A stretch of 64,000 nt of DNA from Flavobacteriales bacterium (GTDB taxonomy: Bacteria; Bacteroidota; Bacteroidia; NS11-12g; UBA955): positions 928 to 64,927 of the forward strand of contig JAHEMG010000008.1 of the NCBI GenBank assembly GCA_024643755.1, given 5' to 3'. Positions within the stretch are counted from its first letter, which is position 1, and each line of letters starts with the position of its first letter. The notes beneath the pieces were generated by a model, which saw nothing but the letters and a program-made list of their open reading frames with translations, was not told the DNA's origin and did not search any database. Shown here piece after piece: positions 31,652 to 50,473 of this stretch. Made by a program: the position numbers and the translations under genes.

Positions 31652-31653
31652 CT

Positions 31654-34620: not shown

Positions 34621-35904
34621 TTATTGCTTGATAAAGCGCTGAACTGCAGTGCCTTCGTTAGTCTCAACAGAGATCAAGTACGCACCAGCAGCCAATTGGG
34701 TAGCAGAGATCTGGGCAGAGCTGTTTTTCACAGACACTTCCTTCACGATCTGACCGCTCAAATTCAATACACGAACGACATTGATGGTAGCACCATTGGC
34801 CAAGCTCACGTTGAAATCGCCGTTGCTAGGGTTAGGATAGATAACCAATCCGTTAACAACATTGTTCTTAACTGCGCTCACTGGACGGGTGGTTTTCACC
34901 AACTCGTAGTGCCAGTACGCACCGTTTCCAATTCCGATGTCTACTTTCATGGTATCTGCAACGATAGCAACTTCGTAAGTGATTGTGTCTTTTGCGTTTG
35001 CTGGCGCAGACAATTCACCACCGTTGTAGGCCTTTGGCAATCCCAAGTATGAACCTTTACCCACCAAAGTGATGGTTCCATTGTTTTTATTGGCTGACCA
35101 CTTGCCTGCATTTGCACCATCGTGAGGCGCTACTGGCGTACCGCAAGCAAATGAACCACCCTGCCATCCTTCCAAGAAGGTTGAACCTTGCAATTCATTT
35201 TTGAATGTACCGTCTGCATCGAAATTGTAGATATCGTCGTACTGACAAGCACGCACACCGGTAATTTCCGCTGCAGGAACTTTCCACCAACCGAAATCGC
35301 CTTTGGCAGGTCCTACGGCCATTGAAGTTTCAACGGGACGCAATTTCCACAAACCAACTGGGTTGATTTCAGGCATTTTCTTCACCAATTCGAAGTGCCA
35401 GTATCCACCACCAATTGAAATATCTACAGACATGTTGCTTCCGGTAACAGATACTTCGTAAGTGATAGAATCTTTGGCATCAGCCACTTTCGACAATTCA
35501 CCACCGTTGTAGGCCTTTGGCAAACCAATGAAAGCACCCTTACCGTACAAGGTAACAGTACCTTTGGCCGCATCGTACTTCCAAGTTGCATTACCTGAAC
35601 CATCAAAAGGAGCTACAGGAGTTCCACAAGCAAAACTTCCACCCATCCATCCTTCAACGAAGGTTGAACCTTGGAAGTTCATTTTGTAAGTACCGTCTGC
35701 ATTGAATACAAACTCGTCATCGTACTGACAAGTACGTGCACCTGTGATTTCTGCTGCAGGTACTTTCCACCAACCATAATCACCTTTGGCAGGTCCTACC
35801 GCCAAAGAAGTTTCTACTGGCGACAAAGTCCATGTACCAGCGATTTGAGCCAAGCTGCTACCAACGAGGGCGGCGAACACGGCGAGAGTAGTTATTTTTT
35901 TCAT
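34621..35904 (-). CDS. T9SS-secreted protein with two tandem ~165-aa putative glycan-binding modules
   Basis: Signal peptide. There are two highly similar repeats (GTWTLSPVETSLAVGPAKGDYGWWKV...QYDDEFVFNADG / GLWKLRPVETSMAVGPAKGDFGWWKV...QYDDIYNFDADG). The C-terminal CTD is IYPNPSNGDFNVSL...GAYLISVETNEG. Confidence 0.7.
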   Translation of the reverse strand: MKKITTLAVFAALVGSSLAQIAGTWTLSPVETSLAVGPAKGDYGWWKVPAAEITGARTCQYDDEFVFNADGTYKMNFQGSTFVEGWMGGSFACGTPVAPFDGSGNATWKYDAAKGTVTLYGKGAFIGLPKAYNGGELSKVADAKDSITYEVSVTGSNMSVDISIGGGYWHFELVKKMPEINPVGLWKLRPVETSMAVGPAKGDFGWWKVPAAEITGVRACQYDDIYNFDADGTFKNELQGSTFLEGWQGGSFACGTPVAPHDGANAGKWSANKNNGTITLVGKGSYLGLPKAYNGGELSAPANAKDTITYEVAIVADTMKVDIGIGNGAYWHYELVKTTRPVSAVKNNVVNGLVIYPNPSNGDFNVSLANGATINVVRVLNLSGQIVKEVSVKNSSAQISATQLAAGAYLISVETNEGTAVQRFIKQ

Positions 35905-36189
35905 GTAAAATTAATTTTATTGGCTCAAATATAGCCGAATAATTGAGTTATGGTAATTTCAACAATAACTTTTTGGTAATAAATCCCCTTTGTTTGACAA
36001 TAGACATTCGCAAATTCAACAAAAAGGGCTATCCCCTCTCAAATACAGCGGGAATTCAACATTTCACGACAAACAATAAGGTTGCTTTGTCATAGAAATG
36101 TCATAAAAATATTACACAATTAGCATTAAACCCCTTCCAATATTCATCGTCTAACACCCAAATTCGTAACTATTTATATTTTCCATATC

Positions 36190-37821
36190 GTGAAAACCCG
36201 CCTATCGCAATTACTACCAATTTTACTGTTTTCGTTGACTACAGTTATCAAGGCCCAACTGCCAAACATCATTCTCGGAAGGCCCACCGATACCTCTATC
36301 ACGGCCTCCATTCAATTTTCCCAAGACGTAGACTATTACCTTGAATATGGAACACAGCCCGGCAACTATACCCACACAACGCCCACCATCAGTCACAAAT
36401 CCACCCAGCCCGACGAAATTGTGCTGCACAACTTGTTCCCCAATACCCGATACGTATATCGCGTTCAGTCCAAAATACCCGCAAAACCATCGTTCACACC
36501 CTCTCCAGAATACAACTTCCACACCCAACGACCCCAAGGTAGCGCATTCACATTCACCATTGAAGCAGACGAGCACCTTTACGATAAAAAGGGGGTGGCA
36601 AACATGTATAAAATCACCCTAGAAAATCAGGCGAAAGACAAGCCCGACTTCATGCTTTCGCTGGGTGATATTTTCGGTGATGACCACAACCCATTTACCA
36701 TCACCCCCACCGAAATTGATGCGCTTCACAAAAACTACAGACCCTACCTAGGTGCCATCACACACTCAATCCCTTTCTACGTTTGCTTAGGCAACCACGA
36801 AGGCGAAATGGACTATTACCTTCTGAAAAACCCTGGCAACAACCTCGCGCATCACAGCACGTACTATCGAAAGTTTTACTACCCCAATCCCTCTCCCAAT
36901 GGTTTTTATTCAGGTAATATCGACCAAGAACCCTTCGGTATCGATATGCCCGAAAACTACTATGCATGGACTTGGGGCGATGCACTATTTGTTGTGATGG
37001 ATGTGTATCGCGATCAGTGCGACACCTCCGCAAAACCTGGCGGCTGGGCATGGTCGCTCGGAAAACCCCAATACGACTGGCTAAAAAGCACCCTTGAAAA
37101 CAGCACCGCTAAACACAAACTCGTGTTTGCACACCATGTTTCTGGACAAGGGAGGGGTGGCATTGTACAAGCAAAATACTATGAATGGGGTGGACTCGAC
37201 AAAAACAACACCAATACGTTTGCCGCCAAAAGACCCGGTTGGGCAAAGCCCATTCATCGATTGTTTGTAGACAACGGGGTAGATATATTTTTCCAGGGAC
37301 ATGATCATGTGTTTGCCCACGAAATCATGGATGGTGTTACATATCAAGCCGTACCGATGCCCAGTGATTCTACTTACCTTATTGGAAAACTCGCCAACGC
37401 CGATGCCTACACCGCAGACACCTTGGATGGCACAGGTCACATCCGCGTAACGGTAAATAACGCCTGTATCACCGTGGACTATGTAAAGGCCTTCCTTCCC
37501 AAAGATACATTAGATGGCAAACATAAAAATGGAGAAATCGCATTCTCATATACCGTAGGCGACTGCAGTTTATCGCAAACACAACCCAACAAAGAAATCC
37601 TGAAGATCCAACCCAATCCTGCTAACCAGCGCTTGCTGATTCAATACCCAGAACATTGGCAATCGCCCAACATTCAACTGTTCAATACAAAAGGACAATT
37701 GGTGCATTTATCGAATTCCCCTGAAATCAATACACATTCCCTCCTACCCGGCCTCTACTACGTGGTTGTGGATAATGGTCATCAAAAAGTTACAGAAAAA
37801 GTCATCATTCAACACCCCTAA
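36190..37821 (+). CDS. Purple-acid-phosphatase-like metallophosphoesterase with T9SS type A CTD
   Basis: GTG start plus signal peptide. N-terminal PAP Fn3-like domain. Metallophosphoesterase motifs are GDIFGDD, LGNHE, FAHH and GHDHVF. The CTD is IQPNPANQRLLIQY...GLYYVVVDNG. Confidence 0.8.
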   Translation: MKTRLSQLLPILLFSLTTVIKAQLPNIILGRPTDTSITASIQFSQDVDYYLEYGTQPGNYTHTTPTISHKSTQPDEIVLHNLFPNTRYVYRVQSKIPAKPSFTPSPEYNFHTQRPQGSAFTFTIEADEHLYDKKGVANMYKITLENQAKDKPDFMLSLGDIFGDDHNPFTITPTEIDALHKNYRPYLGAITHSIPFYVCLGNHEGEMDYYLLKNPGNNLAHHSTYYRKFYYPNPSPNGFYSGNIDQEPFGIDMPENYYAWTWGDALFVVMDVYRDQCDTSAKPGGWAWSLGKPQYDWLKSTLENSTAKHKLVFAHHVSGQGRGGIVQAKYYEWGGLDKNNTNTFAAKRPGWAKPIHRLFVDNGVDIFFQGHDHVFAHEIMDGVTYQAVPMPSDSTYLIGKLANADAYTADTLDGTGHIRVTVNNACITVDYVKAFLPKDTLDGKHKNGEIAFSYTVGDCSLSQTQPNKEILKIQPNPANQRLLIQYPEHWQSPNIQLFNTKGQLVHLSNSPEINTHSLLPGLYYVVVDNGHQKVTEKVIIQHP

Positions 37822-37835
37822 GACATCAACACTTT

Positions 37836-39551
37836 ATGAAATTACCCCTACTCATTTTGGGACTGCTCGGTGCAATCCAACTCCAATCGCAAAACCTGTA
37901 TCACCGAGAATTGTTGGGCAGACCCACCGATAAAGAAATTACTTTACAAGTAGCCTTTGCGGATAGTGCCGAAGCCTATGTGCGATACGGAACAGCATCT
38001 GGCAATCTCACGAATCAAACGCCTTGGCAAATGATGCGCGTGGGTGATCCAACTGAAATCATTATCAACAATCTCACCCCCAACAAACAGTATTTCTACC
38101 AGCTGGTCTATCGCAAACCCAAAACCACACAGGAAACCATCAGGCCCGAATTCACATTTCACACCCAAAGACCTTCGAATCAAGCCTTCACCTTCGTGGT
38201 TCAAGCCGATCCGCATTTGGACCCATTGAGCGATACCGCTGTTTACAAACGCTGCCTGCAAAATCAGCTTGAAGACAAGCCCGATTTCATGATTGACCTG
38301 GGCGATATCATCATGACAGACAAGTTAGTTCGGGCTGGCAGCAAGGTTGTTACACAAGACACCATCGTATACCGCAACCACCTGATGCGCAAATATTATG
38401 AAACCATCACCCACTCAGTACCCTTGTTTATTGCCATCGGTAATCACGAAGCCGAAAATGGATGGAATTTGAATGGCACTGCCAACAATATGGCTGTTTG
38501 GGGCACCAATGAACGCAACAAATATTTTATCAACCCCAAACCAGACAACTTCTATACGGGTGACCAAACTTCACACCCATTTGTGGGACAACGAAAAAGT
38601 TATTACGCATGGACATGGGGCGATGCACTTTTCATTGTGCTCGATCCTTATTTCCATACTGCCGTAAAACCCGATAGCTTGAACGGATGGCGATGGACAC
38701 TGGGCAAAACCCAATATGATTGGTTAAGAAGCACTTTGGAAGGCAGCACAGCAAAATACAAATTCGTCTTCTCCCACCAATTGGTAGGTGGCGACAAAGA
38801 TGGTAGAGGTGGTGTAGAACCAGCCAACAAATATGAATGGGGTGGCGACAACCTTGATGGAACCCGCGGATTTGAAACCCAACGTCCCGGATGGTACAAA
38901 CCCATCAAAGACCTACTCACCGATCATCGAGTGACCATCTTCTTCCACGGGCATGACCACTTTTTTGGCAAACAACAAAAAGAGTGTCTTGTGTACCAAG
39001 AAACCCCTCAACCCAGCCATCCCAATTATTCGAGCGCCAACTACGCTGATGATTATGGATATTTTGAAGGACAGATTTTGCCCAATTCTGGCCATCTACG
39101 CGTAACGGTTGCACCCGAAGGCGTGAAAGTGGATTACGTGAGGGTCTACAAAGCATCTGTAGAATCGGCCACACGCAAAAACAAAGATGTTTCTGCTACC
39201 TATTTTATCGGGGCGGTTAATTGCTATGATTCCTTGAATACCAACTCTCCTGTGATATGGAATTCCAATTATGTACAAGAATGGGTACAACCCAATCCAT
39301 CGCCAGGTGAAACCCTATTGCGATTTCAAATCGTTCAAACCGAGCCCGTAAATTTACAAATCTTTGATGCGCAAGGTCGGTTAGTGCGTAACTTGCTCAA
39401 CCAAAACACATTGCAAACTGGCGAGTTCACAGTGGTTTGGGATGGATGCAATGCCCTCGGCGCTCCCTTGCCCAATGGAACTTATACCTACTGCTTAAAA
39501 GGCAAAACCCACGGTGAACGCTGCGGAAAAATCATACTCAACAGACCCTAA
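37836..39551 (+). CDS. Purple-acid-phosphatase-like metallophosphoesterase with T9SS CTD (paralog of 36190-37821)
   Basis: Colinear with its neighbour (YAWTWGDALFIVLD, GKTQYDWLRSTLEGSTAKYKFVFSHQ, GHDHFF). The CTD is VQPNPSPGETLLRF...GTYTYCLKGK. Confidence 0.8.
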   Translation: MKLPLLILGLLGAIQLQSQNLYHRELLGRPTDKEITLQVAFADSAEAYVRYGTASGNLTNQTPWQMMRVGDPTEIIINNLTPNKQYFYQLVYRKPKTTQETIRPEFTFHTQRPSNQAFTFVVQADPHLDPLSDTAVYKRCLQNQLEDKPDFMIDLGDIIMTDKLVRAGSKVVTQDTIVYRNHLMRKYYETITHSVPLFIAIGNHEAENGWNLNGTANNMAVWGTNERNKYFINPKPDNFYTGDQTSHPFVGQRKSYYAWTWGDALFIVLDPYFHTAVKPDSLNGWRWTLGKTQYDWLRSTLEGSTAKYKFVFSHQLVGGDKDGRGGVEPANKYEWGGDNLDGTRGFETQRPGWYKPIKDLLTDHRVTIFFHGHDHFFGKQQKECLVYQETPQPSHPNYSSANYADDYGYFEGQILPNSGHLRVTVAPEGVKVDYVRVYKASVESATRKNKDVSATYFIGAVNCYDSLNTNSPVIWNSNYVQEWVQPNPSPGETLLRFQIVQTEPVNLQIFDAQGRLVRNLLNQNTLQTGEFTVVWDGCNALGAPLPNGTYTYCLKGKTHGERCGKIILNRP

Positions 39552-39561
39552 TCCCTTCCCC

Positions 39562-41202
39562 ATGAAAACAAAAATCTTCCTATTACTCTGTATTATTTCT
39601 TACCTACTTCCGCTCAAGATTTCTGCCCACGATGCACACTACCAAGATGCTAAACCAAGGGTTTGGAACACCCACAACGGGCCAGTGACAGCCACCTTTT
39701 TCCTCCTAAAAAATCAAGACGTTTTATTGGAAGAGCCAAACGGACAAATTAAAACGATTCCATTGTTATCATTTTCGCGGAACGACCAACAATTTATCGC
39801 ACAGAAGCAAGCCTGGATACAAAAAATCAACCAACTCCAGCAGTCGAAAAGCGCACAAAACAGCACTCGGTATACGCAATTACAGCAACCCAATTCAACA
39901 GAAGTCAATAACCGCCGTGAATTATTGTGGATCGTAATCATACTAGGCTTTTTGGCCATTATCATCCGATTCACATCGCGTTTACAACCCCTAAGATTTG
40001 TCTTACCCATACTTGCAACAATTATCTTATTGACTGCCAGTAGCTTTACCTACAAATCAATGAAATGGATGGGACTTAGCACCCGTATTTCATTTCTCGA
40101 TAGCGCATTCTCTTATTACAAACCGAGCATCGCAACGCGGTCAGACAACAATTATTACTATGTAGAATCCACTGGTTTGCCTGATCATGAAACCATGCTT
40201 GGCATTACCTCTTGGCAACAGCAAGTACCCATTCCACAGTGTTACATTGGAAGCAACGCATGGTCTATTCCTGTTAACCCGACCATCGCCGCCACGCCTG
40301 TTCCTGTAAATCAAAACCACTTTTTGCGCGGTGCCATTGCATTGGCAGTCAATGGCATTCCCATCTTTAATCCCTACACAAATACAGGGGTGGATGCCTT
40401 TTTAGACGGTCAGTTAGACCAATACGGAGGACACAGCGGCAGAGCCGACGACTACCATTACCACATCGCACCTACCATACTCTACAATAAAATCCCAAAA
40501 ACGTCTCCAGTAGCTTTTGCCTTGGATGGATTTGCCGTTTACGGAAACCTTGAACCCGATGGTTCGGCGCAAAAATCGCTCGACGCCAATCATGGCCATT
40601 ACGGCAGCGATGGCATCTACCATTACCACTCCAGTGCAACCGCTCCATACATGATTGGCAATATGGTTGGCACCGTTACCGAAGATGCAACAATGCAAAT
40701 CATTCCACAAGCAGCCGCAAAAGGCGTAAGACCCGCACTCACTCCCTTGAAAGGCGCCACCATTACCCACTGCCACCCGTATCCCGCAGGAAATGGATTC
40801 AAGCTCACCTACACCGTGGGCACCGAAAAAGATACGGTGGATTACAGTTGGACCGCCACAGGAGATTACACCTATAAGTTCATCACACCTGCAGGCACTA
40901 CCACCAGCAATTACAAAGGTCAAGCCATCTGCAAAGTCACCGTCGGAAATCACAAAACCACGGAATTGATCTCTGCCGTTTTTGTAGATCCCAACCGAAT
41001 CATACAAATCATTTCCCAACAAGAATCTCAACTCAATCAAGAAATTGTTATCATCAACAGTGCAGGTCAAATAATTTACAGCACCAACAACCAAAGTAAG
41101 CAACTCCAAATCCCTACAGATGGATGGCCATCAGGCATCTATTACCTTCAATCAAAATCCCCTAGAACTACAGGGAAAACGCATAAATTCTTATTACACT
41201 AA
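39562..41202 (+). CDS. SHD1-like domain / two TM segments / YHYH-domain protein with CTD-like tail
   Basis: ATG 39562 plus signal peptide. RVWNTHNGPVTATFFLLKNQDVLLEEPNGQIKTIPLLSFSRNDQQF resembles the SLA1-homology SHD1 domain. Hydrophobic segments are LLWIVIILGFLAIIIRF and FVLPILATIILLTASSF. It carries DDYHYH and GIYHYH motifs (YHYH family) and a C-terminal beta-sandwich tail. Confidence 0.65.
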   Translation: MKTKIFLLLCIISYLLPLKISAHDAHYQDAKPRVWNTHNGPVTATFFLLKNQDVLLEEPNGQIKTIPLLSFSRNDQQFIAQKQAWIQKINQLQQSKSAQNSTRYTQLQQPNSTEVNNRRELLWIVIILGFLAIIIRFTSRLQPLRFVLPILATIILLTASSFTYKSMKWMGLSTRISFLDSAFSYYKPSIATRSDNNYYYVESTGLPDHETMLGITSWQQQVPIPQCYIGSNAWSIPVNPTIAATPVPVNQNHFLRGAIALAVNGIPIFNPYTNTGVDAFLDGQLDQYGGHSGRADDYHYHIAPTILYNKIPKTSPVAFALDGFAVYGNLEPDGSAQKSLDANHGHYGSDGIYHYHSSATAPYMIGNMVGTVTEDATMQIIPQAAAKGVRPALTPLKGATITHCHPYPAGNGFKLTYTVGTEKDTVDYSWTATGDYTYKFITPAGTTTSNYKGQAICKVTVGNHKTTELISAVFVDPNRIIQIISQQESQLNQEIVIINSAGQIIYSTNNQSKQLQIPTDGWPSGIYYLQSKSPRTTGKTHKFLLH

Positions 41203-41230
41203 TTCCTGTAACATATCAGTCCAAAACCAA

Positions 41231-42448
41231 ATGAACATCCGTCATTTTCTCTCACATATTTTCGTTACGATAGGGCTCTTTGGAACCCAATCCGTTGGAT
41301 TGGGCCAATCGGTTTACCGCACTTTGAAAAAGCTGCCCGACACAGGACAATACCTGAGTTACACCAGCACATATGGCGAAGACAACGACTACACGATCAA
41401 TCCACCCAACCTAAAAGTCAACAATAGCACTATGGTCTACGATTCTGTGACTACCCTTCTTTGGCAGCTGAGCGATGGGGGCGAAATGACTTTCGATCAG
41501 GCCATCAACTATTGCGACACCCTAACCTTGGGCGGATTTACAGACTGGCGATTGCCATCGCCTGCAGAAGCCTATTCTATATTAAACCACCAAAACCCCA
41601 ATCCTGCGGTTGATATCAAAATCTTCCCAAAAACCGGTGCAGAATATTGGTATACATCGGCCGTTCAAGCCAACGACCCCAGTAAGTCCTGGGTTACCAA
41701 TGCAGGTGGAGGCATCGGAAATCACCCCAAGACAGAGACCATCTCTGCCGGAGGAACAAAAAAATTCCATGCCCGAGCGGTACGATCCACCACCCCCGAC
41801 GTATTCATTGCCAATCGTTTTATAGACAATGGCGATGGCACCGTCACCGACCAACTCACCGATCTCATGTGGGTAAAATCACCCGGCACAACGGCAAGCA
41901 CTTGGGAAGATGCAATTTTACTGTCGGAATACAACACAACCGGCGGACACACAGACTGGCGATTACCCAACATCAAAGAAATCAGAAGTCTGAATGACGA
42001 AACACGTACCCAACCCTCAGTTTCAACCACTGCATTCCCGGGTATAGAACAATCCAAATTTTGGTCATCCACCACCCTCCCCAATCAGTCTAGCAAAGCT
42101 TGGTATTATGACAACCAATATGGCATCACCACATATGATGTAAAATCGGCTACCCATTTGGTTTGGATGGTGCGCTCCGCGAACAACATTGCTTCTATGA
42201 ATCCCGTTGAAAAAAATCAACCTACAGGTTTCCGGATTTTTCCAAATCCAACAGATCACATCTTGACCATTCAAAGCGATATAATCATCACCATGGTCGA
42301 AATTAGAAACCCGCTGGGACAGGAAATCACAAAGATCTACAACACCAATAAAATCAACATTTCAGCACTACCTACCGGGCAGTATGTACTTACGGTATAC
42401 AATCAAAATAGTCAACCCGTAGGACGAACCATCTTCCTAAAAAACTAA
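41231..42448 (+). CDS. DUF1566 (Lcl C-terminal-like) domain protein with T9SS type A CTD
   Basis: Signal peptide. DWRLP motifs are repeated (TDWRLPSPAE, TDWRLPNIKE). The CTD is IFPNPTDHILTIQS...GQYVLTVYNQ. Confidence 0.7.
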   Translation: MNIRHFLSHIFVTIGLFGTQSVGLGQSVYRTLKKLPDTGQYLSYTSTYGEDNDYTINPPNLKVNNSTMVYDSVTTLLWQLSDGGEMTFDQAINYCDTLTLGGFTDWRLPSPAEAYSILNHQNPNPAVDIKIFPKTGAEYWYTSAVQANDPSKSWVTNAGGGIGNHPKTETISAGGTKKFHARAVRSTTPDVFIANRFIDNGDGTVTDQLTDLMWVKSPGTTASTWEDAILLSEYNTTGGHTDWRLPNIKEIRSLNDETRTQPSVSTTAFPGIEQSKFWSSTTLPNQSSKAWYYDNQYGITTYDVKSATHLVWMVRSANNIASMNPVEKNQPTGFRIFPNPTDHILTIQSDIIITMVEIRNPLGQEITKIYNTNKINISALPTGQYVLTVYNQNSQPVGRTIFLKN

Positions 42449-42449
42449 A

Positions 42450-43808
42450 TCAATCCTTCAAGACCACCACGCGTTCAGTGATCACTGCATTGGGTGTATT
42501 CACCCGCACCAAATAATCGCCTGAATACATTTTTCTTAGATCGAAATGTGCCATGGTACTGCCAGCGTAAACGGTTTGTTGATCCATTACACGTCCCTGC
42601 AAATCCATCAATTCAACCACCACATTTGTTGATAGGTACTTCGCAATTTGAACCACCAAAACATCAGAAGATGGATTGGGATACAGCGAAACTTTCACAA
42701 TCTCTTTCTGTGAAAGACCATTAGATTGAGGCACATACGTAGTCACCGCCTCCGTTACTGAAGTCACCTTTGATGCCGTGCGCACACCATAATAGGTTGG
42801 TCCCACCACATAAGGATAGCTCGAATTCCATTGAGCATCCACCGTGGCGAAATAGCAATATATGCCGTTGGGGTATTCTGGGGTTACACAAAAACGACCG
42901 TTGTGCTCATCCAGATACTCGCTTTGCTGAGCAGACGGTGCCACGTACTCATAATCCTCCCGAAACAAACCCAAAGGATAGGTTGAATTCACGGCCGGAC
43001 CATCCACTACATCGGAACCATCGGCATAATGGGTTCTCACCGCAATGTTTCTTAGTTTGTAGCTACTTTTCATCCGAACCAATCCACCAGTACCATCCAC
43101 ATTCTTGAATCCATAGGCACCATATATCGGGAAACCATCAACCGCATAGCCCAACAAAGGGGCATGTTGCGCACTATCAATCAAATACAAACCGTCTGCC
43201 GCATACAAATCGCAGACATTCGATATCACCTTTTTATCCAATTTGAACGCCGAAGGATTTTGATGATGGTGATAATTGCCCATCGCCGGATGTCCTTTCG
43301 CACAATCAAACCCACCCCGCTCAGCAACCACAGCATCCCGGTTCCAAACATTGTCGCCCATCCCCATAAGCGGCCCGCCTTTCAACGCTTGCTGCGCATT
43401 GCTCCAACTCACGCCATCTCTGTAATCAAACAAAGCAACCCCATTGATAAAAATCCCAATATTACCGCCGGTTGTACTCGTTGGTGTACCCGAATTTTTC
43501 ACTGGCTTCAGGGATATTTTGAAAATCGCATTCTGATTTTGCGCCAAACTGGGATTGCCATCCAAAAACGGACCCGTGATGTATGATGGAATTCCAGTAG
43601 TTGTCACATACACCCAATCCGTGGAGTATTGCACCTTTTGAACATTCGCTAGCACATCATCCGCCACCGGGGTTGAATTGCCTTTTACATAATGTCTACC
43701 CTTGATATTGGTGGTGTTTTGAATCCATTGAGTGATCCCTGGATTGGTTTGGGCGATGGCCGATCCGCCCATCATCAACAAACAGAAGAAGTGTATTTTT
43801 CGTAACAT
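42450..43808 (-). CDS. YHYH-domain protein with T9SS type A CTD
   Basis: ATG 43806-43808 plus signal peptide (FFCLLMMGGSAIAQ). It has GNYHHHQNP and DEHNGR...GIYCYFAT motifs colinear with the YHYH region of 39562-41202. The CTD is LYPNPSSDVLVVQI...GDYLVRVNTP. Confidence 0.7.
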   Translation of the reverse strand: MLRKIHFFCLLMMGGSAIAQTNPGITQWIQNTTNIKGRHYVKGNSTPVADDVLANVQKVQYSTDWVYVTTTGIPSYITGPFLDGNPSLAQNQNAIFKISLKPVKNSGTPTSTTGGNIGIFINGVALFDYRDGVSWSNAQQALKGGPLMGMGDNVWNRDAVVAERGGFDCAKGHPAMGNYHHHQNPSAFKLDKKVISNVCDLYAADGLYLIDSAQHAPLLGYAVDGFPIYGAYGFKNVDGTGGLVRMKSSYKLRNIAVRTHYADGSDVVDGPAVNSTYPLGLFREDYEYVAPSAQQSEYLDEHNGRFCVTPEYPNGIYCYFATVDAQWNSSYPYVVGPTYYGVRTASKVTSVTEAVTTYVPQSNGLSQKEIVKVSLYPNPSSDVLVVQIAKYLSTNVVVELMDLQGRVMDQQTVYAGSTMAHFDLRKMYSGDYLVRVNTPNAVITERVVVLKD

Positions 43809-43868
43809 ACTGTCCCTTAGACGACAAAGTTCAACCAATCACGCGCATTTTCTTCTTTTTTCTCCATC

Positions 43869-44996
43869 TCATTTTCTTGGCGATTGTCGAGGATCCACAA
43901 AATCCATCGAATACAAAAATTTCCGATCGGTCAACGTCATCAAAAAAGCCACCAAATCCACGCGCTCATTGGCATCCAACGATATATCAATCACCTTTCG
44001 CTGCCCCTCACCAGAATCCCCAGAAATACCCGAACCACCCCCATCGCCCCGAACCACCAACCGCTTTCCTGAATAGTTTTTCACCACCTGATATAAAGAT
44101 TGAAACCCGCCATTGTGCATATACGGAAAACTCACCTCCACATTCCGCAACGTAGGAATCTTCATGTGATACGCATCATTCACCAAACCTGTAACCAGCG
44201 CCCTACCCCTATCCAAACCACTCACCACAACACCCGCAGAATCCATGCCTTTCAACCCATCAGCCCATCCATTGTATTCGTATCCGGGACGGGTAAACAG
44301 GGGCTCGGTATGACAAGCAGCGCAGAATTTTTGAAACAACGCATACCCCCTATTTTCTTGTTGGGTGAAGCTGATCTGTTGTCGACGCATAGAATCGTAT
44401 CGAGACTGATCACTCACGAATGTGAGCTCAAACCGGGCGATGGCTTTTAGCGCCAGGGGCAATGAAATCGGCTGATTTGGGTACGCTAAGGCAAACAGGG
44501 ATTGATACCGCGGATTTTGTTTTATGCCATTCAAATAGTCTTGGAGCGACATGCCCATTTCTGTGTGTGCGGCGATGGGTGCCATGGATTGCAACTCCAG
44601 ATGTTGGATGGCACCGTCCCACATGAATCCCGATTGCCAAGCGAGGTTCATGAGGGCCGGCGCGTTGCGCCGGCCCTCCCTATCGAAAACACCGTGACTC
44701 AATTTGTGGTCCACGTGTGCAAATGCCGTGTATGACGTATGACAGCTGCCACAGCTCACTTTGCCATCCGCCGATAGCGATTCATCGTAAAACAAAACCC
44801 TGCCCAACGCAATTTCTGCATCCACGTTCACACCATTCGAAAATACCAATATGGGCTTTGGCCATCCCTCCCGCGACAATCGCTCATACCTGCGCTCCAC
44901 AGATTTCGCATCGCCCAATCCACCCCCCGCATATCCCAAAATCACACAGCCGCTCAAGGCAACACAAACAATCCCAATCCAGCCTGTCCTTCTCAT
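43869..44996 (-). CDS. Di-haem cytochrome c peroxidase family protein (MauG/MbnH-like)
   Basis: Two CxxCH motifs (CGSCH, CAACH), the RNAPALMN motif and PYMHNG. It lies immediately downstream of an MbnP-like gene. Confidence 0.85.
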   Translation of the reverse strand: MRRTGWIGIVCVALSGCVILGYAGGGLGDAKSVERRYERLSREGWPKPILVFSNGVNVDAEIALGRVLFYDESLSADGKVSCGSCHTSYTAFAHVDHKLSHGVFDREGRRNAPALMNLAWQSGFMWDGAIQHLELQSMAPIAAHTEMGMSLQDYLNGIKQNPRYQSLFALAYPNQPISLPLALKAIARFELTFVSDQSRYDSMRRQQISFTQQENRGYALFQKFCAACHTEPLFTRPGYEYNGWADGLKGMDSAGVVVSGLDRGRALVTGLVNDAYHMKIPTLRNVEVSFPYMHNGGFQSLYQVVKNYSGKRLVVRGDGGGSGISGDSGEGQRKVIDISLDANERVDLVAFLMTLTDRKFLYSMDFVDPRQSPRK

Positions 44997-45000
44997 CTTC

Positions 45001-45771
45001 TTATTCCCGACGATTTCTGCGTCTCACGCTATTCAATACATTTCGATGCCTAGGCGACACCGATATCTCATCATCTACCCAAATACCTTCGGCAACCAAC
45101 GAACAGTATCTGCGCCCAGCGGAGCTGGGCGACATCACACGCAGCTCATCGCCCAAATTCAACAGCAGCGAATCCAATGCCCAAACAAAACCCAAATTAC
45201 GTTTTGATGGTCGTTTACCACCGTGAATTGCATCTAGAAAAAATCCATATGACGCCATTGAGGTTTTATTCTCACCCTCAAATCCTCCCAAATGCAATTC
45301 CAATTTCCGTTCACCCGCCGAATCCCGCAACAACCCCTCCAATTTAAATTGGATATACCCCGATTGCCAAGTCCAATACATCCCGTGAACTGGATCCAAA
45401 TCGCCATCCATCACCCCGCTGCGCTGCAACAAACTATCCACACCAAACAATATCCAAACAGCAAAATCAACTTTACGAGCATATACTTGGCGATGTAAAC
45501 TTGCGCTATCAGCCAAATCCAAGAGCCAAGCATCACCTACTCTGGTCTGCCGTCTGTTCGCCAAATATGGCGTAACATACCAGCGCATCACATCAACTTT
45601 GCATTCCAAACCGCCCGGCAACACCGTCCACTGATTCAACACCAATGGCTTTCCAGCCAACGTAACCCGATGATGAAAATCCAGTCTTTGCCCATGTAGC
45701 CGTCCCATCGCTGCGAACAAAAGTCCGAGCACCAACCGACGAAGGCCCAAGCCCAACAAAAAATCCATCAT
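45001..45771 (-). CDS. MbnP-like periplasmic (copper-binding-type) protein
   Basis: Signal peptide. All-beta protein with HGMYWTWQSGYIQFKLEG and LELHLGG segments, which I recognise as MbnP-family-like. The 4-nt spacing to the di-haem peroxidase gene mirrors mbnP-mbnH pairs. This assignment was made by eye and needs an HMM check. Confidence 0.55.
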   Translation of the reverse strand: MMDFLLGLGLRRLVLGLLFAAMGRLHGQRLDFHHRVTLAGKPLVLNQWTVLPGGLECKVDVMRWYVTPYLANRRQTRVGDAWLLDLADSASLHRQVYARKVDFAVWILFGVDSLLQRSGVMDGDLDPVHGMYWTWQSGYIQFKLEGLLRDSAGERKLELHLGGFEGENKTSMASYGFFLDAIHGGKRPSKRNLGFVWALDSLLLNLGDELRVMSPSSAGRRYCSLVAEGIWVDDEISVSPRHRNVLNSVRRRNRRE

Positions 45772-45794
45772 GATTGCATCAAATCTAGGGCAAA

Positions 45795-46283
45795 TTACCG
45801 CCTTCTTGGCATTTTTTCACCGCCCGGACGATGTCCAAACATCTCGTTAAATTCAACTACCATCTCTTCAAACGCCTTCACCTGCCTACCCTCACACAAA
45901 CCTTTAATTTGCTTAAAATGAGCCACATGTATTTGATGTATTTCTGCTTGAAGCGAACCAATTTCCTTACAAATTTGCATCGTCTCAGTTGAATCCATCC
46001 CAGAACCAACCCCCTCAAACAGCGTTTGCCTCAACGCATTAATTTTCCGCTCTCGCTCCCCCACCGCTTTTCTATGCAATGCGATAAATCCCTCATATTT
46101 TTTCACTTGCCAATCTTCAAATTGCAAGCGCTTGATAATTTCTTTTTTCGGACCCTCTCCCCTGCCATTCCTTCTACCCATCTCGCCCTTCCCCAGAAAC
46201 GCGCTCAACCAAAATCCCGCTACCACCAACAAATTGAGCAACAGAAGTCCCATTACCCAACGACGATTGAATTCAATTCTCAT
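45795..46283 (-). CDS. Spy/CpxP-like periplasmic protein (heavy-metal-sensor/chaperone family)
   Basis: N-terminal TM/signal anchor followed by helical LTxxQ-like repeats (LQFEDWQVKKYEGF..., GSLQAEIHQIHVAHFKQIKGL). The start is uncertain (ATG at 46283, 46289 or 46313). Confidence 0.55.
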   Translation of the reverse strand: MRIEFNRRWVMGLLLLNLLVVAGFWLSAFLGKGEMGRRNGRGEGPKKEIIKRLQFEDWQVKKYEGFIALHRKAVGERERKINALRQTLFEGVGSGMDSTETMQICKEIGSLQAEIHQIHVAHFKQIKGLCEGRQVKAFEEMVVEFNEMFGHRPGGEKMPRRR

Positions 46284-46683
46284 AGACATATAGTTGTTCG
46301 GTTTGATTGACAAAATCGCCCAATAAATTCACTGTATCGGCCTCTGGGTCATGGATGGATGGCGATACACCGCTGAAGGCAATCACTTCCAGAAGCAACA
46401 AAAAAACCGCAACAAAAGTCCAGGCCAGTGGAACTGTAGAGTTCGAATTCACACGCTGCGCACCTGCATCAAAACCCTGCACCGACATTGCTTCACGCCG
46501 TGCATCAATCTTCGCAACTATCCTTGAAAATACAAATGGGGATATTTCCACCCGATTTACGCGGCTCGCCATTGCAAGGGGATCATTGTCTTGGTATTTA
46601 CGCATTGTTTTATCGATAGTTTCTGCTTTAGCATCCACTGCAAATCGTTTACTAACTAGTCGCTTAGACGATAATTTTATCAT
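46273..46683 (-). CDS. Small single-pass membrane protein in the anti-sigma position
   Basis: ATG 46681-46683 overlaps the sigma-factor stop (ATGA). There is one TM segment (VPLAWTFVAVFLLLLEVIAFSGV). No recognisable zinc-finger anti-sigma motif. Confidence 0.5.
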   Translation of the reverse strand: MIKLSSKRLVSKRFAVDAKAETIDKTMRKYQDNDPLAMASRVNRVEISPFVFSRIVAKIDARREAMSVQGFDAGAQRVNSNSTVPLAWTFVAVFLLLLEVIAFSGVSPSIHDPEADTVNLLGDFVNQTEQLYVYEN

Positions 46684-47207
46684 TTTCCTTCGCTTTTTTG
46701 TGAGAATTTGAGCAATTTTTTTCTTGCGCGAGACAGCAATGCATCTACTGCTTTCACGCTGATGTTCATGATTTGTGCAACTTCCGATATCTCCAATCCT
46801 TCCAATCGCACCAATATCAGGGCTGTTCGCTGCTTTTCTGGCAGTTGATCGATCCAACCAAACCATTGTTGGAGGGTTTCTTTGTATTCCAATGCCACAC
46901 CGGGGTGATTGAATTCTGTGTTCTGCTGCGGCACCCATTGGGTAAACACATCAAAATATTGCAACACGCCCCAGCCCCGTTTTTGTGCGCTTCTCGATTT
47001 CAACTTATCCAAGGAACGATTTACAGCGATGCGGTAAATCCAGGTGCCCAGGGTTGACTTCCCCTCAAACTGCATGGCCTTTTCATGTACGGCTAAAAAC
47101 ACATCTTGAACCACCTCCTCGGCATCTTCAACATTCCTCAAATGATTCAGGGCGATGTTATAGACGCGATTTGCGTATTGTCGGTATATTTCCTCCAGAG
47201 ACTGCAA
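46680..47207 (-). CDS. ECF-type sigma-70 family RNA polymerase sigma factor
   Basis: Region 2 (AEEVVQDVFLAVHEK...WIYRIAVNRSLD) and region 4 (LPEKQRTALILVRLEGLEISEVAQIMNISVKAVDALLSRARKKL). TTG start. Confidence 0.85.
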   Translation of the reverse strand: MQSLEEIYRQYANRVYNIALNHLRNVEDAEEVVQDVFLAVHEKAMQFEGKSTLGTWIYRIAVNRSLDKLKSRSAQKRGWGVLQYFDVFTQWVPQQNTEFNHPGVALEYKETLQQWFGWIDQLPEKQRTALILVRLEGLEISEVAQIMNISVKAVDALLSRARKKLLKFSQKSEGK

Positions 47208-47272
47208 TGATGTTGTTTTTGTTCAAAAACAAGACGACAAAAATCATCGCTGTCCCCCTCAACCGAAAAAAT

Positions 47273-48559
47273 TTATTTCAATAAAAATTCTTCACCGTTG
47301 ACAAATACGCGATCACAATGATTTTGCGCAACAAAATACGGGATGGCCTTTATGGCGTCTACCGTATTGGTGGTAAAGAAGTTGGCGCGCTGGCCTGCGG
47401 CCAGCGCGCCAACTTCTTTTTCGCAACGCAGCGCCCGCGCTGCGTTGCACGTAACAGCATAAAATGCCTCTGCCGGCAACAGTTTCTGTTGCGTACAGCC
47501 CAAAGCCCATACCATTTGCAAACTCGCTATCGGACTGCTCCCCGGGTTAAAATCAGTAGCCATCGCAAAAGGCAATCCTGCATCAATCAATGCCCTCCCC
47601 GGAGCATATGGAATCCCCAAAAAATAACTCGTACCCGGCAATCCCACTGGTACCGTCCCTCCGTATTCTAATTCCAACGACGACCGCAACAAATCAATCT
47701 CTACCTCGCTGCAATGCTCCAAATGATCTGCACTCCAACTGACATTGGCCACCGCCACCTGAACACCTCCCGTTAACCCCAACTCATTCGCGTGAATTTT
47801 CGATGGCAAACCCATCGCCGCAGCCGCCTTCAAAATTCGATCGGTCTGCTCAACCGTAAAAAACCCACGATCACAAAACACATCGATATGATCTGCCAAC
47901 CCCTCTTCCACCACCTTCGGCAACATGTCTGTTATCACCAAATCCACATACTTATCTGGCTCCCCCTTAAACTCCATCGGAATGCCATGCGCTCCCAAAA
48001 AAGTAGCCTTAATCAAAATGTCAAAATCCTGCTTCAATCGCTTTACCACCCGCAACATCTTCAACTCACTCTCGGTGGTTAACCCGTAACCACTTTTGAT
48101 CTCCACCGTGGTTGTGCCATGGGCAATCATCACCTTCAATCTATCCGCTGCCGCTGCATACAAATCATCCTCCGACATCACCTGCAACTTGCGCGCAGAA
48201 TTCAATATCCCTCCCCCGGCTGCCGCAATCGCTTCGTAACTCTCACCGCGCAATCGCATTTCAAATTCTTCGTGCCTCGGCGCCGCAAAAACAATGTGCG
48301 TATGCGAATCCACCAAACCCGGCAAAACCTCAACCCCTCCCAAATCTATGCGCTCCAAAATTTCGTCCTCACCCATCGCCCCAACATCCTCTCCATAAGA
48401 ACCCTCAGCCCCACCCAAGCCCACGATCCTGCCATCTTCCACCAACATCCAAGCCGAAGTGAATGCCTCCACCTCGCCCATTTCCGCTCCACATCGATAA
48501 CGACCCCGCTCAGCAGCCACACCCCACATCTTTGAAATACCATGAAATAACTTGCGCAT
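47273..48559 (-). CDS. hutI: Imidazolonepropionase
   Basis: LPGLVDSHTHIVFAAPR, GGGILNS, TTVEIKSGYGL, KIHANEL and ATDFNPGSS motifs. Start at ATG 48557-48559. The 97-codon N-terminal extension in the track ORF has no homology-like features. Confidence 0.9.
   Translation of the reverse strand: MRKLFHGISKMWGVAAERGRYRCGAEMGEVEAFTSAWMLVEDGRIVGLGGAEGSYGEDVGAMGEDEILERIDLGGVEVLPGLVDSHTHIVFAAPRHEEFEMRLRGESYEAIAAAGGGILNSARKLQVMSEDDLYAAAADRLKVMIAHGTTTVEIKSGYGLTTESELKMLRVVKRLKQDFDILIKATFLGAHGIPMEFKGEPDKYVDLVITDMLPKVVEEGLADHIDVFCDRGFFTVEQTDRILKAAAAMGLPSKIHANELGLTGGVQVAVANVSWSADHLEHCSEVEIDLLRSSLELEYGGTVPVGLPGTSYFLGIPYAPGRALIDAGLPFAMATDFNPGSSPIASLQMVWALGCTQQKLLPAEAFYAVTCNAARALRCEKEVGALAAGQRANFFTTNTVDAIKAIPYFVAQNHCDRVFVNGEEFLLK
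47375..47448. repeat. Two adjacent perfect palindromes inside hutI (21-bp arms with TGC centre; 12-bp arms)
   Basis: 47375-47419: AAAGAAGTTGGCGCGCTGGCC TGC GGCCAGCGCGCCAACTTCTTT. 47423-47448: GCAACGCAGCGC CC GCGCTGCGTTGC. Both verified base by base. Confidence 0.95.
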
Positions 48560-48587
48560 CAGGTGCAAATTACGCAATTTTGAAAGG

Positions 48588-49115
48588 ATGACCACCGATG
48601 AATTGTTGCAAAAATTGCAACATCCCCCACAAATACACCCCAGTGCATTCGTAGCGCCCAACGCCACAGCCATCGGTGATGTTCTCGTTGATGCAGACGC
48701 TTCCCTGTGGTTTGGTGCTGTCCTTCGTGGCGATACCGACACCATCTCTGTGGGTGCAAGAACCAACATCCAAGACAATGCCGTGATCCATGCCGATCCA
48801 GGTGCCCCTTGTACCATCGGCGCTGATTGCGTGATCGGACATACAGCCATCGTTCACGGAGCCACACTATCACACCACGTGCTGGTTGGCATGCACGCAA
48901 CCGTGTTAAACCATGCTCAAATTGGCGAATACAGCATCATTGGTGCCAACGCCATGGTACCTCAAGGCATGATCATTCCTCCCTATTCCCTGGTCTTGGG
49001 AACCCCCGCCAAAGTAGTTAAAACCCTGGGTCCGGAAGTCGAATCCCAAATCCAAAACAATGTTGACGAGTACGTTTTGAGGGCAAAAGCTTATAAAAAG
49101 CACTTTGCGGAATGA
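48588..49115 (+). CDS. Gamma-carbonic-anhydrase-like / left-handed beta-helix (hexapeptide repeat) protein
   Basis: Hexapeptide repeats and the motifs LRGDTDTISVGARTNIQDNAVIH and IGHTAIVHGA, as in YrdA/PaaY-type gamma-CA family proteins. ATG 48588. Confidence 0.8.
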   Translation: MTTDELLQKLQHPPQIHPSAFVAPNATAIGDVLVDADASLWFGAVLRGDTDTISVGARTNIQDNAVIHADPGAPCTIGADCVIGHTAIVHGATLSHHVLVGMHATVLNHAQIGEYSIIGANAMVPQGMIIPPYSLVLGTPAKVVKTLGPEVESQIQNNVDEYVLRAKAYKKHFAE

Positions 49116-50113: not shown

Positions 50114-50143
50114 TCTCCAACCCCATTACCTTTGTAGCATCGC

Positions 50144-50473
50144 ATGGAAAACAGCACCGAAAAAAAATACATGAAAATTGGCGAAGCGGCCGCAATCATC
50201 GGTGTTCCAGCCAGTACCCTTCGCTTTTGGGAGAAGAATTTTCCGCAAATCAAGCCCATGAAAAACAAAAAGGGCGATCGGTTTTACACCCAGAAGGACC
50301 TGGAGGTGCTGAAAGAAATTCACTATCTTTCACATAACAAAGGGTTAAAACTGTCGAGCGTCTCCAAATCAGTAAAGCGAAACGACGATGGAATTACGCC
50401 ACAAGCAAAGCTGATACAAGAACTCAGGGGATTCAGGGAAACACTCATCAAACTCAAGGAACAATTGGAATGA
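50144..50473 (+). CDS. Small MerR-family HTH transcriptional regulator
   Basis: YMKIGEAAAIIGVPASTLRFWEKNF...DRFYTQKDLEVLKEI is a MerR-type HTH, followed by a C-terminal coiled coil. The stop overlaps the next ATG (ATGA). Confidence 0.75.
   Translation: MENSTEKKYMKIGEAAAIIGVPASTLRFWEKNFPQIKPMKNKKGDRFYTQKDLEVLKEIHYLSHNKGLKLSSVSKSVKRNDDGITPQAKLIQELRGFRETLIKLKEQLE

Follow-up and report, generated by a model that had tools for sequence, protein, structure and literature searches.

A conserved MbnP-MbnH-YHYH gene cluster of Bacteroidota with an optional sigma-factor front end and a promoter-like motif before the secreted YHYH gene

Introduction

What could a secreted YHYH-domain protein do that is encoded directly beside an MbnP-like protein and an MbnH-like di-haem enzyme, and how much of the surrounding DNA belongs to the same system? 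We address this question for a stretch of 64,000 nucleotides (nt) from an uncultured freshwater Bacteroidota genome (Flavobacteriales bacterium, assembly GCA_024643755.1, contig JAHEMG010000008.1, positions 928 to 64,927), referred to below as the window, in which a run of six minus-strand genes and a run of four plus-strand genes converge. An initial annotation, made from the letters of the DNA, had read the two runs as a convergent operon pair under a dedicated extracytoplasmic function (ECF) sigma factor, together forming one metal acquisition or redox module exported by the type IX secretion system (T9SS).

In Methylosinus, MbnP can bind Cu(I) at a His/Met/Kyn site only after MbnH has turned the first Trp of its WxW motif into kynurenine (reviewed in PMC11951088), and the gene pair occurs well beyond the methanobactin producers (PMC3621798). 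What the pair does outside these producers is a question of its own, and the YHYH domain is itself 'enigmatic'. The searchable literature on YHYH (PF14240) consists of a jumbo-phage study, in which a His3Asp site and a Zn-dependent hydrolase were predicted (PMC7824862), and a list of Pfam domains in diatoms. The view of the initial annotation that YHYH domains have no assigned function is therefore nearly right, with this one published prediction as the qualification.

The kinds of component at this locus are known: an MbnPH pair, an ECF sigma factor with a small anti-sigma-like and a Metal_resist-like protein, and T9SS cargo. What we found in no searchable paper is the constant coupling of MbnPH to YHYH, a promoter in front of the YHYH gene, and a YHYH fold that is predicted with confidence yet resembles no solved structure; the main gene-neighbourhood study of MbnP lies outside that literature.

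Results

The conserved core of the minus-strand cluster

The minus-strand run begins with an ECF-type sigma-70 factor of 175 amino acids (aa) with a TTG start (46680-47207), followed by a small single-pass membrane protein of 136 aa (46273-46683), a membrane-anchored periplasmic helical protein of the Metal_resist/LTXXQ type of 172 aa (45795-46313), an MbnP-family protein of 256 aa (45001-45771), an MbnH/MauG-like di-haem enzyme of 375 aa (43869-44996), and a YHYH-domain protein of 452 aa with a predicted signal peptide and a T9SS type A C-terminal domain (CTD) (42450-43808, the open reading frame (ORF) extending to 43838). The coordinates of this packed array were reproduced, as were the ATGA overlap at 46680-46683 and the gaps of 23, 4 and 60 nt; the last of these holds if the ATG at 43808 is taken as the YHYH start, a choice backed by homologues of 452 aa.

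Conservation of the array was assessed in two directions. An alignment of 30 MbnP sequences (A2; 24-93% identity to the window protein) was run against one genome per species and, with the pattern MYWTWQ[ST]G, yielded 497 relatives. The best 80 of these 497 loci were used, all from metagenome-assembled genomes of Bacteroidota of many families; they are the most similar hits and include some near-duplicates. Six-frame ORFs of each locus were searched with the window proteins, so that gene boundaries are those of stop-to-stop ORFs, and jackhmmer profiles were iterated on a small database. For the reverse scan a YHYH alignment was run against metagenome contigs.

MbnH lay directly 3' of MbnP in 71/71 evaluable loci (the gap in the window is the one of 4 nt), and a YHYH gene of the 42450-43808 type came next on the same strand in 55/62, mostly less than 100 nt from MbnH. 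Conversely, MbnH stood directly 5' of YHYH in 52 of the 59 evaluable metagenome loci. The adjacency of YHYH and MbnPH put forward in the initial annotation is thus conserved in relatives, and reciprocally so, the link holding in ~89% of evaluable loci in both directions and extending over Saprospiraceae, Chitinophagaceae, Flavobacteriales, Crocinitomicaceae, Cytophagales and others. The same order of minus-strand genes turns up in dozens of independent lineages of Bacteroidota and is not due to chance. Independent gene calls with precomputed Pfam labels agree, giving the full six-gene set in loci L004 and L089, MbnP-MbnH-YHYH without the sigma factor in L088, the sigma factor and its two companions leading directly to YHYH without MbnPH in L087, and a solitary YHYH gene in L003 and L086. 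The conserved core is accordingly a tight reciprocal triad of MbnP, MbnH and a YHYH protein with a T9SS CTD; within it YHYH is the hub of the cluster, since it occurs with the sigma trio alone, with MbnPH alone or by itself and is also the most conserved member.

The secreted YHYH protein

Assignment of the product of 42450-43808 to the YHYH family held without difficulty (PF14240, 194 bits against a gathering score of 25), and the CTD was matched by Por_Secre_tail (41 bits) and TIGR04183 (45 bits). Identity to the YHYH proteins of relatives was 76, 66, 60 and 54%, compared with 28-38% for MbnP, 41-51% for MbnH and 42-61% for the sigma factor in the same relatives. In an alignment of 60 sequences of 36-81% identity, drawn from representatives at 50% identity (A4), three His and one Asp were invariant (H154, H161, H163 and D205 of the mature protein, corresponding to H173, H180, H182 and D224 of the full-length protein), with H196 (mature), several Asp/Glu, three Arg and several Tyr/Trp near-invariant. 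The invariant set agrees with the published His3Asp prediction (PMC7824862).

An AlphaFold2 model computed with the 60-sequence alignment reached a mean predicted local distance difference test score (pLDDT) of 94.3 and a predicted template modelling score (pTM) of 0.92; an earlier run with 33 close orthologues (64-77% identity) had given a pLDDT of 43 and was discarded. Searches of the Protein Data Bank (PDB) with the sequence and the family profile returned nothing beyond matches to the CTD, and Foldseek found no fold relative of the model in the PDB (best E = 1.7, template modelling score ~0.1). Against the BFVD database the same model matched solely YHYH-domain proteins, namely cyanophage structural or baseplate proteins and proteins of giant viruses (mimivirus), with a best E of 1.7e-19.

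The MbnP and MbnH proteins

The MbnP call was borne out by PF20243 (67 bits against a gathering score of 27). The NCBIfam equivalog model TIGR04052 scored 20.9 bits against a cut-off of 140, and neither the sequence nor the family profile reached any PDB entry, 7L6G included; judged by these scores the protein is a member of the superfamily in a remote subfamily. Throughout A2 the motif GMYWTWQSGY (W133-x-W135), H160, M131 and M213-S-P215 are invariant. The C-terminus (45001-45090) carries a basic tail of ~25-30 aa (SPRHRNVLNSVRRRNRRE) that is confined to the window clade and absent from the other A2 lineages. In two loci (L126:4609-6144 and L127:5412-6947) the MbnP-matching ORF is ~512 aa long, roughly double, and may represent a fusion or an N-terminal extension.

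The MbnH-like protein matches CCP_MauG (PF03150, 153 bits) and has two CxxCH motifs (CGSCH and CAACH), as anticipated for a di-haem enzyme of this family. Its best NCBIfam model is that of MbnH (TIGR04039, 196 bits, below the cut-off of 363), against 136 bits for MauG (TIGR03791). The best PDB chain is 6e1c (E = 2e-36, residues 53-373), with canonical peroxidases close behind (~1e-33); the PDB record reads 'Di-heme enzyme' only, and we take this entry to be MbnH. One Tyr of the window protein falls opposite the Tyr in the ...IYS segment of 6e1c, which is presumably an axial haem ligand. The N-terminus, MRRTGWIGIVCVALSGC, includes a lipobox-like LSGC, so the protein may be a lipoprotein instead of being soluble in the periplasm; in relatives the called genes have later starts and encode 293-343 aa.

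The sigma-factor front end

Regions 2 and 4 of the sigma factor were both recognised (Sigma70_r2, 62 bits; Sigma70_r4_2, 62 bits; Sigma70_ECF, 38 bits; TIGR02937, 95 bits against a cut-off of 43), in line with its first identification. A sigma orthologue was present 5' of MbnP in 25 of the 60 evaluable genome loci and the 172-aa protein in 26/60, and one or other of them stood 5' of YHYH in 22/40 metagenome loci. The trio of sigma factor, small single-pass protein and Metal_resist-like protein is therefore an optional front end, found in about 40-55% of loci. The proposal of a dedicated ECF sigma factor survives in part: a sigma gene is often attached (25/60 and 22/40), yet about half of the clusters do without the trio.

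The 136-aa protein has one hydrophobic segment, WTFVAVFLLLLEVIAF, its ATG overlaps the sigma stop codon, and its orthologues at the same position are 86-108 aa long. No Pfam or NCBIfam match was obtained for it. From its position it is a putative anti-sigma factor.

For the 172-aa protein the start probably lies at 46289 or 46283. Its family alignment (A3) shows an N-terminal transmembrane (TM) helix, RLxFDxxQ and LCKxxQ motifs, invariant H70, C130 and Q134, and near-invariant H119 and H122. The initial CpxP-like assignment fits the family better than the window copy, which has no Pfam match at E<=1; among 20 orthologues, however, 12 match PF13801 (best E = 4e-6) and 4 match LTXXQ (PF07813, best E = 0.0017), and a weak PF13801 match is on record for the copies in L004 and L005. 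A search of the PDB with the family profile did not find the solved CnrX, ZraP, Spy or CpxP structures.

A promoter-like motif in front of the YHYH gene

The 5' regions of YHYH genes from different lineages share the motif CGAAGGA(A/T)T-N11-(T)CGTCTAA. The strict pattern CGAAGGAWT-N11-CGTCTAA occurs in 18 of 69 unique YHYH 5' regions of the genome loci and in 18 of 5000 random windows, an enrichment of ~70-fold, and elsewhere in the clusters it is found 5' of 0/76 MbnH genes, 0/36 genes for the 172-aa protein, 1/79 MbnP genes and 0/34 sigma genes. A position weight matrix (PWM) was built from the genome loci and run over the independent metagenome loci, with the 99th percentile of the controls as threshold (1% expected). 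It picked out 26/73 YHYH genes and 0/22 sigma genes, and 0/27, 0/53 and 6/48 in the other sets of 5' regions.

In the window the PWM, trained on other lineages, scores 12.6 at 43818-43845 (minus strand, CGCGTGATTGGTTGAACTTTGTCGTCTA), in the 60 nt that separate MbnH from YHYH. Of the control windows, 0.4% score as high, and no other gene of the two operons, those of the plus strand included, rose above background. The -10-like element of this ECF-type promoter (43817-43825) ends 9 nt before the ATG and is the same as the one 5' of the sigma gene. The motif is commoner when a sigma gene is adjacent (15/35 against 3/23; Fisher p = 0.02). It is also found on solitary YHYH genes (L003, L086 and L144), where the sigma factor would accordingly act in trans. 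Three variants can be distinguished, CGAAGGAWT..CGTCTAA, CGCAAGTTT..CAWCTAA, which belongs to other lineages including L087, and CGCGTGATT..GTCGTCTAA. The adjacent sigma factor presumably reads the YHYH promoter.

A second promoter-like footprint, GGGGGACAGCGATGATTTTTGTCGTCT, lies 5' of the sigma gene itself (47232-47258, minus strand); it emerged from 10 relatives with diverged flanks, and its -10-like element TGTCGTCT is kept in the window clade. An autoregulatory sigma promoter common to all lineages was rejected, as a clear footprint was confined to the window clade and the YHYH-type motif was absent 5' of sigma genes outside it in both data sets (the 0/34 and 0/22 above).

Accessory genes

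The remaining ORFs of the loci were clustered and representatives scanned against Pfam. Multicopper oxidases with a T9SS CTD lie between MbnH and YHYH or beside YHYH in seven loci (L054, L058, L081, L104, L128, L101 and L161), and the link to copper suggested in the initial annotation is reinforced to this extent, in some lineages, by T9SS-tagged multicopper oxidases in the same array. T9SS sulfatase-family proteins adjoin the first YHYH type in ~11 loci. In 7 loci MbnP is preceded by a gene for a periplasmic MsrB-MsrA fusion, and a thioredoxin-like protein of the AhpC/TSA-redoxin type is found in ~10 loci. In L088, whose cluster has no sigma gene, an S1-P1 nuclease gene (4310-5176) overlaps the MbnP start by 17 nt. 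Copper exporters or importers, CopCD-, PCuAC- and Sco-type genes and TonB-dependent transporters were looked for, and none recur across 160 loci.

An early 'multicopper oxidase' cluster of ORFs proved to have mixed two families by way of a fusion protein, and was split into multicopper oxidases and sulfatase-family proteins. ORFs of 1211 aa in L032 (10009-13641) and L082 (3508-7140), both between MbnH and YHYH, combine a three-domain multicopper oxidase, a sulfatase-family part and a T9SS CTD. T9SS-tagged sulfatase-family ORFs beside YHYH (L109, L114, L144, L155/L156 and L106) have CSSTR or CSATR at the place of the C-x-P/A-x-R formylglycine motif of sulfatases.

The plus-strand operon

The coordinates of the four plus-strand genes, and their packing with gaps of 14, 10 and 28 nt, were likewise reproduced. 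The first (36190-37821) encodes a purple acid phosphatase (PAP)-like metallophosphoesterase with a T9SS CTD, as first called (Metallophos, 39 bits; Pur_ac_phosph_N, 32 bits against a gathering score of 30; Por_Secre_tail, 40 bits). For the second (37836-39551) the metallophosphoesterase part of the same call stands (Metallophos, 35 bits), whilst the PAP N-domain, at 22 bits, falls below the gathering score; the protein also matches FlgD_ig (41 bits) and TIGR04183 (26 bits against a cut-off of 23). The fourth (41231-42448) is a DUF1566 protein as proposed, with Lcl_C (PF07603, 164 bits) in two stretches and a T9SS CTD (Por_Secre_tail, 33 bits).

The third gene (39562-41202) encodes a divergent YHYH protein with a predicted signal peptide, an SHD1-like region, two hydrophobic segments, the YHYH domain and a T9SS CTD. 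The call of a second YHYH protein is supported by PF14240 (54 bits) and TIGR04183 (29 bits against 23), and DDYHYH and GIYHYH motifs are present; both YHYH proteins of the window share the motifs GH..YHxH, DGFxxYG and (E/N)HxG. That the window holds two co-located YHYH paralogs is correct insofar as both match PF14240, but they are very distant (BLASTP E = 0.1). The SHD1 call gained no match at E<=0.01 with the whole protein or with residues 1-113, whereas PF03983 is on record for homologues of 73-77% identity (P0393 and P0394), so that the resemblance is probably real but weak. The hydrophobic segments LLWIVIILGFLAIII and FVLPILATIILLTASSF are predicted membrane helices, which is odd for T9SS cargo. 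This architecture is kept at 45-59% identity in L010, L101 (7392-8984) and L128 (10021-11631).

Comparison of loci separated the two operons. Phosphoesterases stand beside the cluster in 5 of the 80 MbnP loci, all five being close relatives that share synteny. In L170 and L171 (51-52% identity) the whole Metallophos-Metallophos-YHYH-Lcl_C operon occurs among unrelated neighbours, without MbnPH, the sigma factor or the other YHYH gene. L172 (65% identity) has flanks like those of the window (SusC/SusD, a 427-aa CTD protein, a HutI-like amidohydrolase and an M23 peptidase) but retains only the last two plus-strand genes, lacking both phosphoesterases and the whole six-gene cluster; the locus is hence a site of gene gain or loss within the clade. 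From these three loci it follows that the two operons are separable modules. The idea of a convergent operon pair acting as one unit was abandoned on these grounds, the plus-strand operon standing alone in L170/L171, L172 being without the cluster, and no promoter of the YHYH type preceding the plus-strand genes.

The separation is not complete in every lineage. L128 has a co-directional array MbnP-MbnH-multicopper oxidase-YHYH-thioredoxin-like protein-second YHYH type-CTD protein-DUF1566, its DUF1566 orthologue being 47% identical, and L101 has a co-directional array MbnP-GNAT-MbnH-YHYH-multicopper oxidase-second YHYH type; the TM-YHYH orthologues of L101 and L128 are 45-50% identical. Given these orthologues, a looser, occasional functional relation is plausible. 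The PAP-PAP-YHYH-DUF1566 operon is a separate secreted-enzyme module, one that joins the cluster only occasionally and is not to be merged with it.

An ECF-like site, TAAACC-N16-CGTCTAA, lies 5' of the plus-strand operon (36118-36154, plus strand) and is partly conserved in L001. It was rejected as evidence of co-regulation on account of its different -35 element and its lack of a YHYH PWM score; with this -35 element the plus-strand operon may answer to another ECF sigma factor.

At the tail-to-tail junction (42446-42452) the TAA stop of the plus-strand operon (42446-42448), one base, and TCA, the reverse complement of TGA (42450-42452), were read directly, so the stops do lie 1 nt apart as described. 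A terminator-like site was not found in the junction, as had also been noted at first, and a bidirectional terminator there was rejected on this basis and because RNA folding (z = -0.17 and -0.98) did not go beyond shuffled controls. The tail-to-tail arrangement is kept across the window clade (L001, L011-L013, L016, L017, L091 and L093), and in L001 the two convergent genes share 4 nt. The T9SS CTD is present on each of the five proteins to which it had been attributed (TIGR04183 at 41.3, 26.3, 29.3, 28.3 and 44.7 bits against a cut-off of 23), and their translations have hydrophobic N-termini, from which their secretion is predicted.

Other features of the window

A 427-aa T9SS-tagged protein (34621-35904, minus strand) consists of two duplicated halves, with AGTWTLSPVETSLAVGPAKGDYGWWKVPAAEITG repeated; it adjoins a SusC/SusD-like pair (30173-34542) and is kept beside the cluster in relatives, and its homologue in L172 has a faint Lipocalin_4 match on record. 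On the other side of the cluster, the 525-aa ORF listed for the HutI-like amidohydrolase (47273-48850, minus strand) is over-extended at its N-terminus, the relatives having 407-443 aa and a start near MRKLFHGISKMW. GC skew is negative in nearly all 2-kb bins of the window (1-64000), irrespective of gene orientation, with a minimum of -0.30 at 44-46 kb and 50001-52000 as the sole exception.

Discussion

A copper-handling module, tentatively

Our preferred reading, which we hold tentatively and which is largely inferred, is that the minus-strand cluster could be an ECF-controlled envelope copper-handling module serving a secreted YHYH metalloenzyme. The Metal_resist-like protein would respond to a signal in the periplasm, copper or its accompanying oxidative damage being the likeliest, and pass it through the small anti-sigma-like protein, in the manner of CnrYXH. 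The sigma factor thus freed would drive the operon as well as the promoter that precedes YHYH. MbnH, as a periplasmic di-haem enzyme of the MauG type, would oxidise Trp133 of the WxW motif of MbnP to kynurenine, and this residue together with His160 and a Met would create a Cu(I) site. MbnP might then buffer Cu(I) or hand it to T9SS cargo folding in the periplasm before export. Its main client would be YHYH, with a metal site formed from the invariant three His and Asp, and in some lineages a T9SS multicopper oxidase would be a further client. After export by the T9SS, YHYH would work as a cell-surface or extracellular metalloenzyme.

Several points weigh against this proposal. The classical signal of CnrX/ZraP-type sensors is an excess of metal, more in keeping with defence than with supply. 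The -10-like element lies only 9 nt from the YHYH ATG in the window, so that the mRNA would be nearly leaderless. The MbnP subfamily is remote from the characterised protein (21 of the 140 bits of TIGR04052, with the profile missing 7L6G), which makes Cu(I) binding here an extrapolation. YHYH domains are also known from phages, giant viruses and eukaryotes, and orthologues are solitary in L003, L086, L140, L144 and L150, so in general the fold needs no MbnPH. Other neighbours of YHYH, namely the PAP-like phosphoesterases, the sulfatase-family proteins and the S1-P1 nuclease, point to ester hydrolysis, and the published prediction for YHYH is that of a Zn hydrolase (PMC7824862).

A further reading, in which YHYH would be a new class of copper-dependent secreted enzyme (an oxidase or an enzyme using H2O2) with a fold that differs from all solved structures, its metal centre loaded or its cofactor built in the periplasm by MbnP/MbnH as a dedicated kynurenine-copper pair before type IX export, we consider unlikely.

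Alternative explanations

The same parts may work in the opposite direction, as a defence against copper or oxidative stress of the envelope, and this is possible, if somewhat doubtful. Excess copper or oxidants would activate the sigma factor via the ZraP/CnrX-like sensor, MbnP would sequester Cu(I), the multicopper oxidase would oxidise it, MsrBA and the thioredoxin-like protein would repair Met and Cys, and exported YHYH would serve at the surface as a metal sink or as a protective enzyme. The Metal_resist/LTXXQ matches of the 172-aa orthologues, the CnrYXH-like architecture of the trio, the recurrence of MsrBA, AhpC/TSA-type thioredoxin-like proteins and multicopper oxidases in the arrays, and the occurrence of the ECF-type promoter chiefly in front of YHYH all speak for such a role. 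T9SS-tagged multicopper oxidases, however, leave the periplasm, where Cu(I) detoxification is needed; genes of the CopA, Cus and CopCD types do not recur nearby in the 160 loci; YHYH is conserved like an enzyme (54-76% identity), unlike a sacrificial binder; and about half of the clusters lack the sigma trio.

Alternatively, YHYH could be a secreted metallohydrolase using Zn or another non-copper metal, acting on phosphoesters, sulfoesters or cell-wall polymers, the link to MbnPH then reflecting shared regulation or a supply of metal by MbnP that is not copper-specific; on balance we regard this as quite unlikely. It agrees with the His3Asp Zn hydrolase predicted for phage YHYH (PMC7824862), with the second YHYH type residing in a conserved operon with two PAP-like metallophosphoesterases (the window, L170 and L171), with the T9SS sulfatase-family proteins beside the first type in ~11 loci and with the S1-P1 nuclease gene overlapping the MbnP start in L088. 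Such hydrolase neighbours are nevertheless a minority or lineage-specific, the YHYH model matches no solved hydrolase fold, and the strongest partner (~89%) is MbnPH, for which Cu(I) binding is the sole characterised function (PMC11951088).

That YHYH is a second substrate of MbnH, receiving a Trp- or Tyr-derived cofactor or cross-link in the periplasm before export, much as methylamine dehydrogenase acquires its tryptophan tryptophylquinone from MauG, appears very improbable. Enzymes of the MbnH/MauG family do act on partner proteins (PMC11951088), the MbnH-YHYH spacing is usually less than 100 nt, and YHYH has near-invariant W9, W136, Y160, Y210, Y298 and Y300 (mature numbering), but MbnP with its invariant WxW, the expected substrate, is always present (71/71), and YHYH orthologues and the wider family exist without MbnH.

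Finally, a single secreted metal-acquisition or redox system of all ten genes is the least probable explanation, for although the tail-to-tail arrangement is kept throughout the window clade and the TM-YHYH and DUF1566 orthologues are co-directional in the L128/L101 arrays, L170 and L171 have the complete four-gene operon but not the cluster, L172 with the same flanking synteny is without the six-gene cluster and the phosphoesterases, a shared promoter motif was not found, and phosphoesterases accompany only 5 of the 80 MbnP loci, all close relatives.

Significance

The triad offers a first testable lead on the function of YHYH, and the genetic link merges its question with that of MbnP/MbnH: is YHYH dependent on MbnPH for metal or for activity? 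The cluster likewise raises the matter of how T9SS-secreted metalloenzymes, multicopper oxidases included, obtain their metal, and it supplies a compact sigma factor/promoter pair for studies of ECF specificity in Bacteroidota. Were YHYH a copper enzyme of the kind outlined above, a metallation pathway from the periplasm to the T9SS would be defined, and a first function would be given to a domain found in Bacteroidota, cyanophage baseplates, giant viruses and diatoms.

Comparison with known systems

The closest precedent is MbnP/MbnH of Methylosinus trichosporium OB3b (7L6G), where a Trp-rich periplasmic protein with a WxW motif is likewise encoded adjacent to a MauG-like di-haem enzyme. In contrast to methanobactin operons, the conserved set described here has no methanobactin genes, no MbnT TonB-dependent transporter and no FecIR-type MbnIR; both NCBIfam equivalog scores are far below their cut-offs, and the constant third partner is a T9SS-secreted YHYH protein. 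In MauG and pre-methylamine dehydrogenase a di-haem enzyme is also encoded beside its periplasmic substrate (PMC11951088), whereas no methylamine dehydrogenase genes are present here.

In methanotrophs, MopE/CorA and MCA2590/CorB similarly place a secreted or surface copper-related protein beside a MauG-like di-haem enzyme, and MopE/CorA has a kynurenine in its copper site (PMC11951088, PMC3621798). The present cluster differs in that the candidate for kynurenine formation is the periplasmic MbnP and not the secreted protein, in the fold of the latter, and in export by the T9SS.

The CnrYXH and NccYXH systems of Cupriavidus comprise an ECF sigma factor, a tiny single-pass anti-sigma factor and a membrane-anchored periplasmic helical sensor, and their regulon is a resistance-nodulation-division (RND) efflux pump. 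The front end of the cluster has the same three-part architecture, with a putative anti-sigma factor and a probable Metal_resist/LTXXQ-type sensor with conserved His. Here, however, the sigma gene comes first, there is no detectable sequence similarity to solved CnrX, ZraP, Spy or CpxP, the window copy of the candidate sensor fails the Pfam model, and the regulon would be a secreted protein with MbnPH instead of an RND efflux pump.

The YHYH proteins of phage tails or baseplates and of giant viruses share PF14240 and the same His triad and Asp with the protein of the cluster. Unlike these virion components, the Bacteroidota protein is free-standing cellular T9SS cargo, linked to MbnPH and to an ECF promoter.

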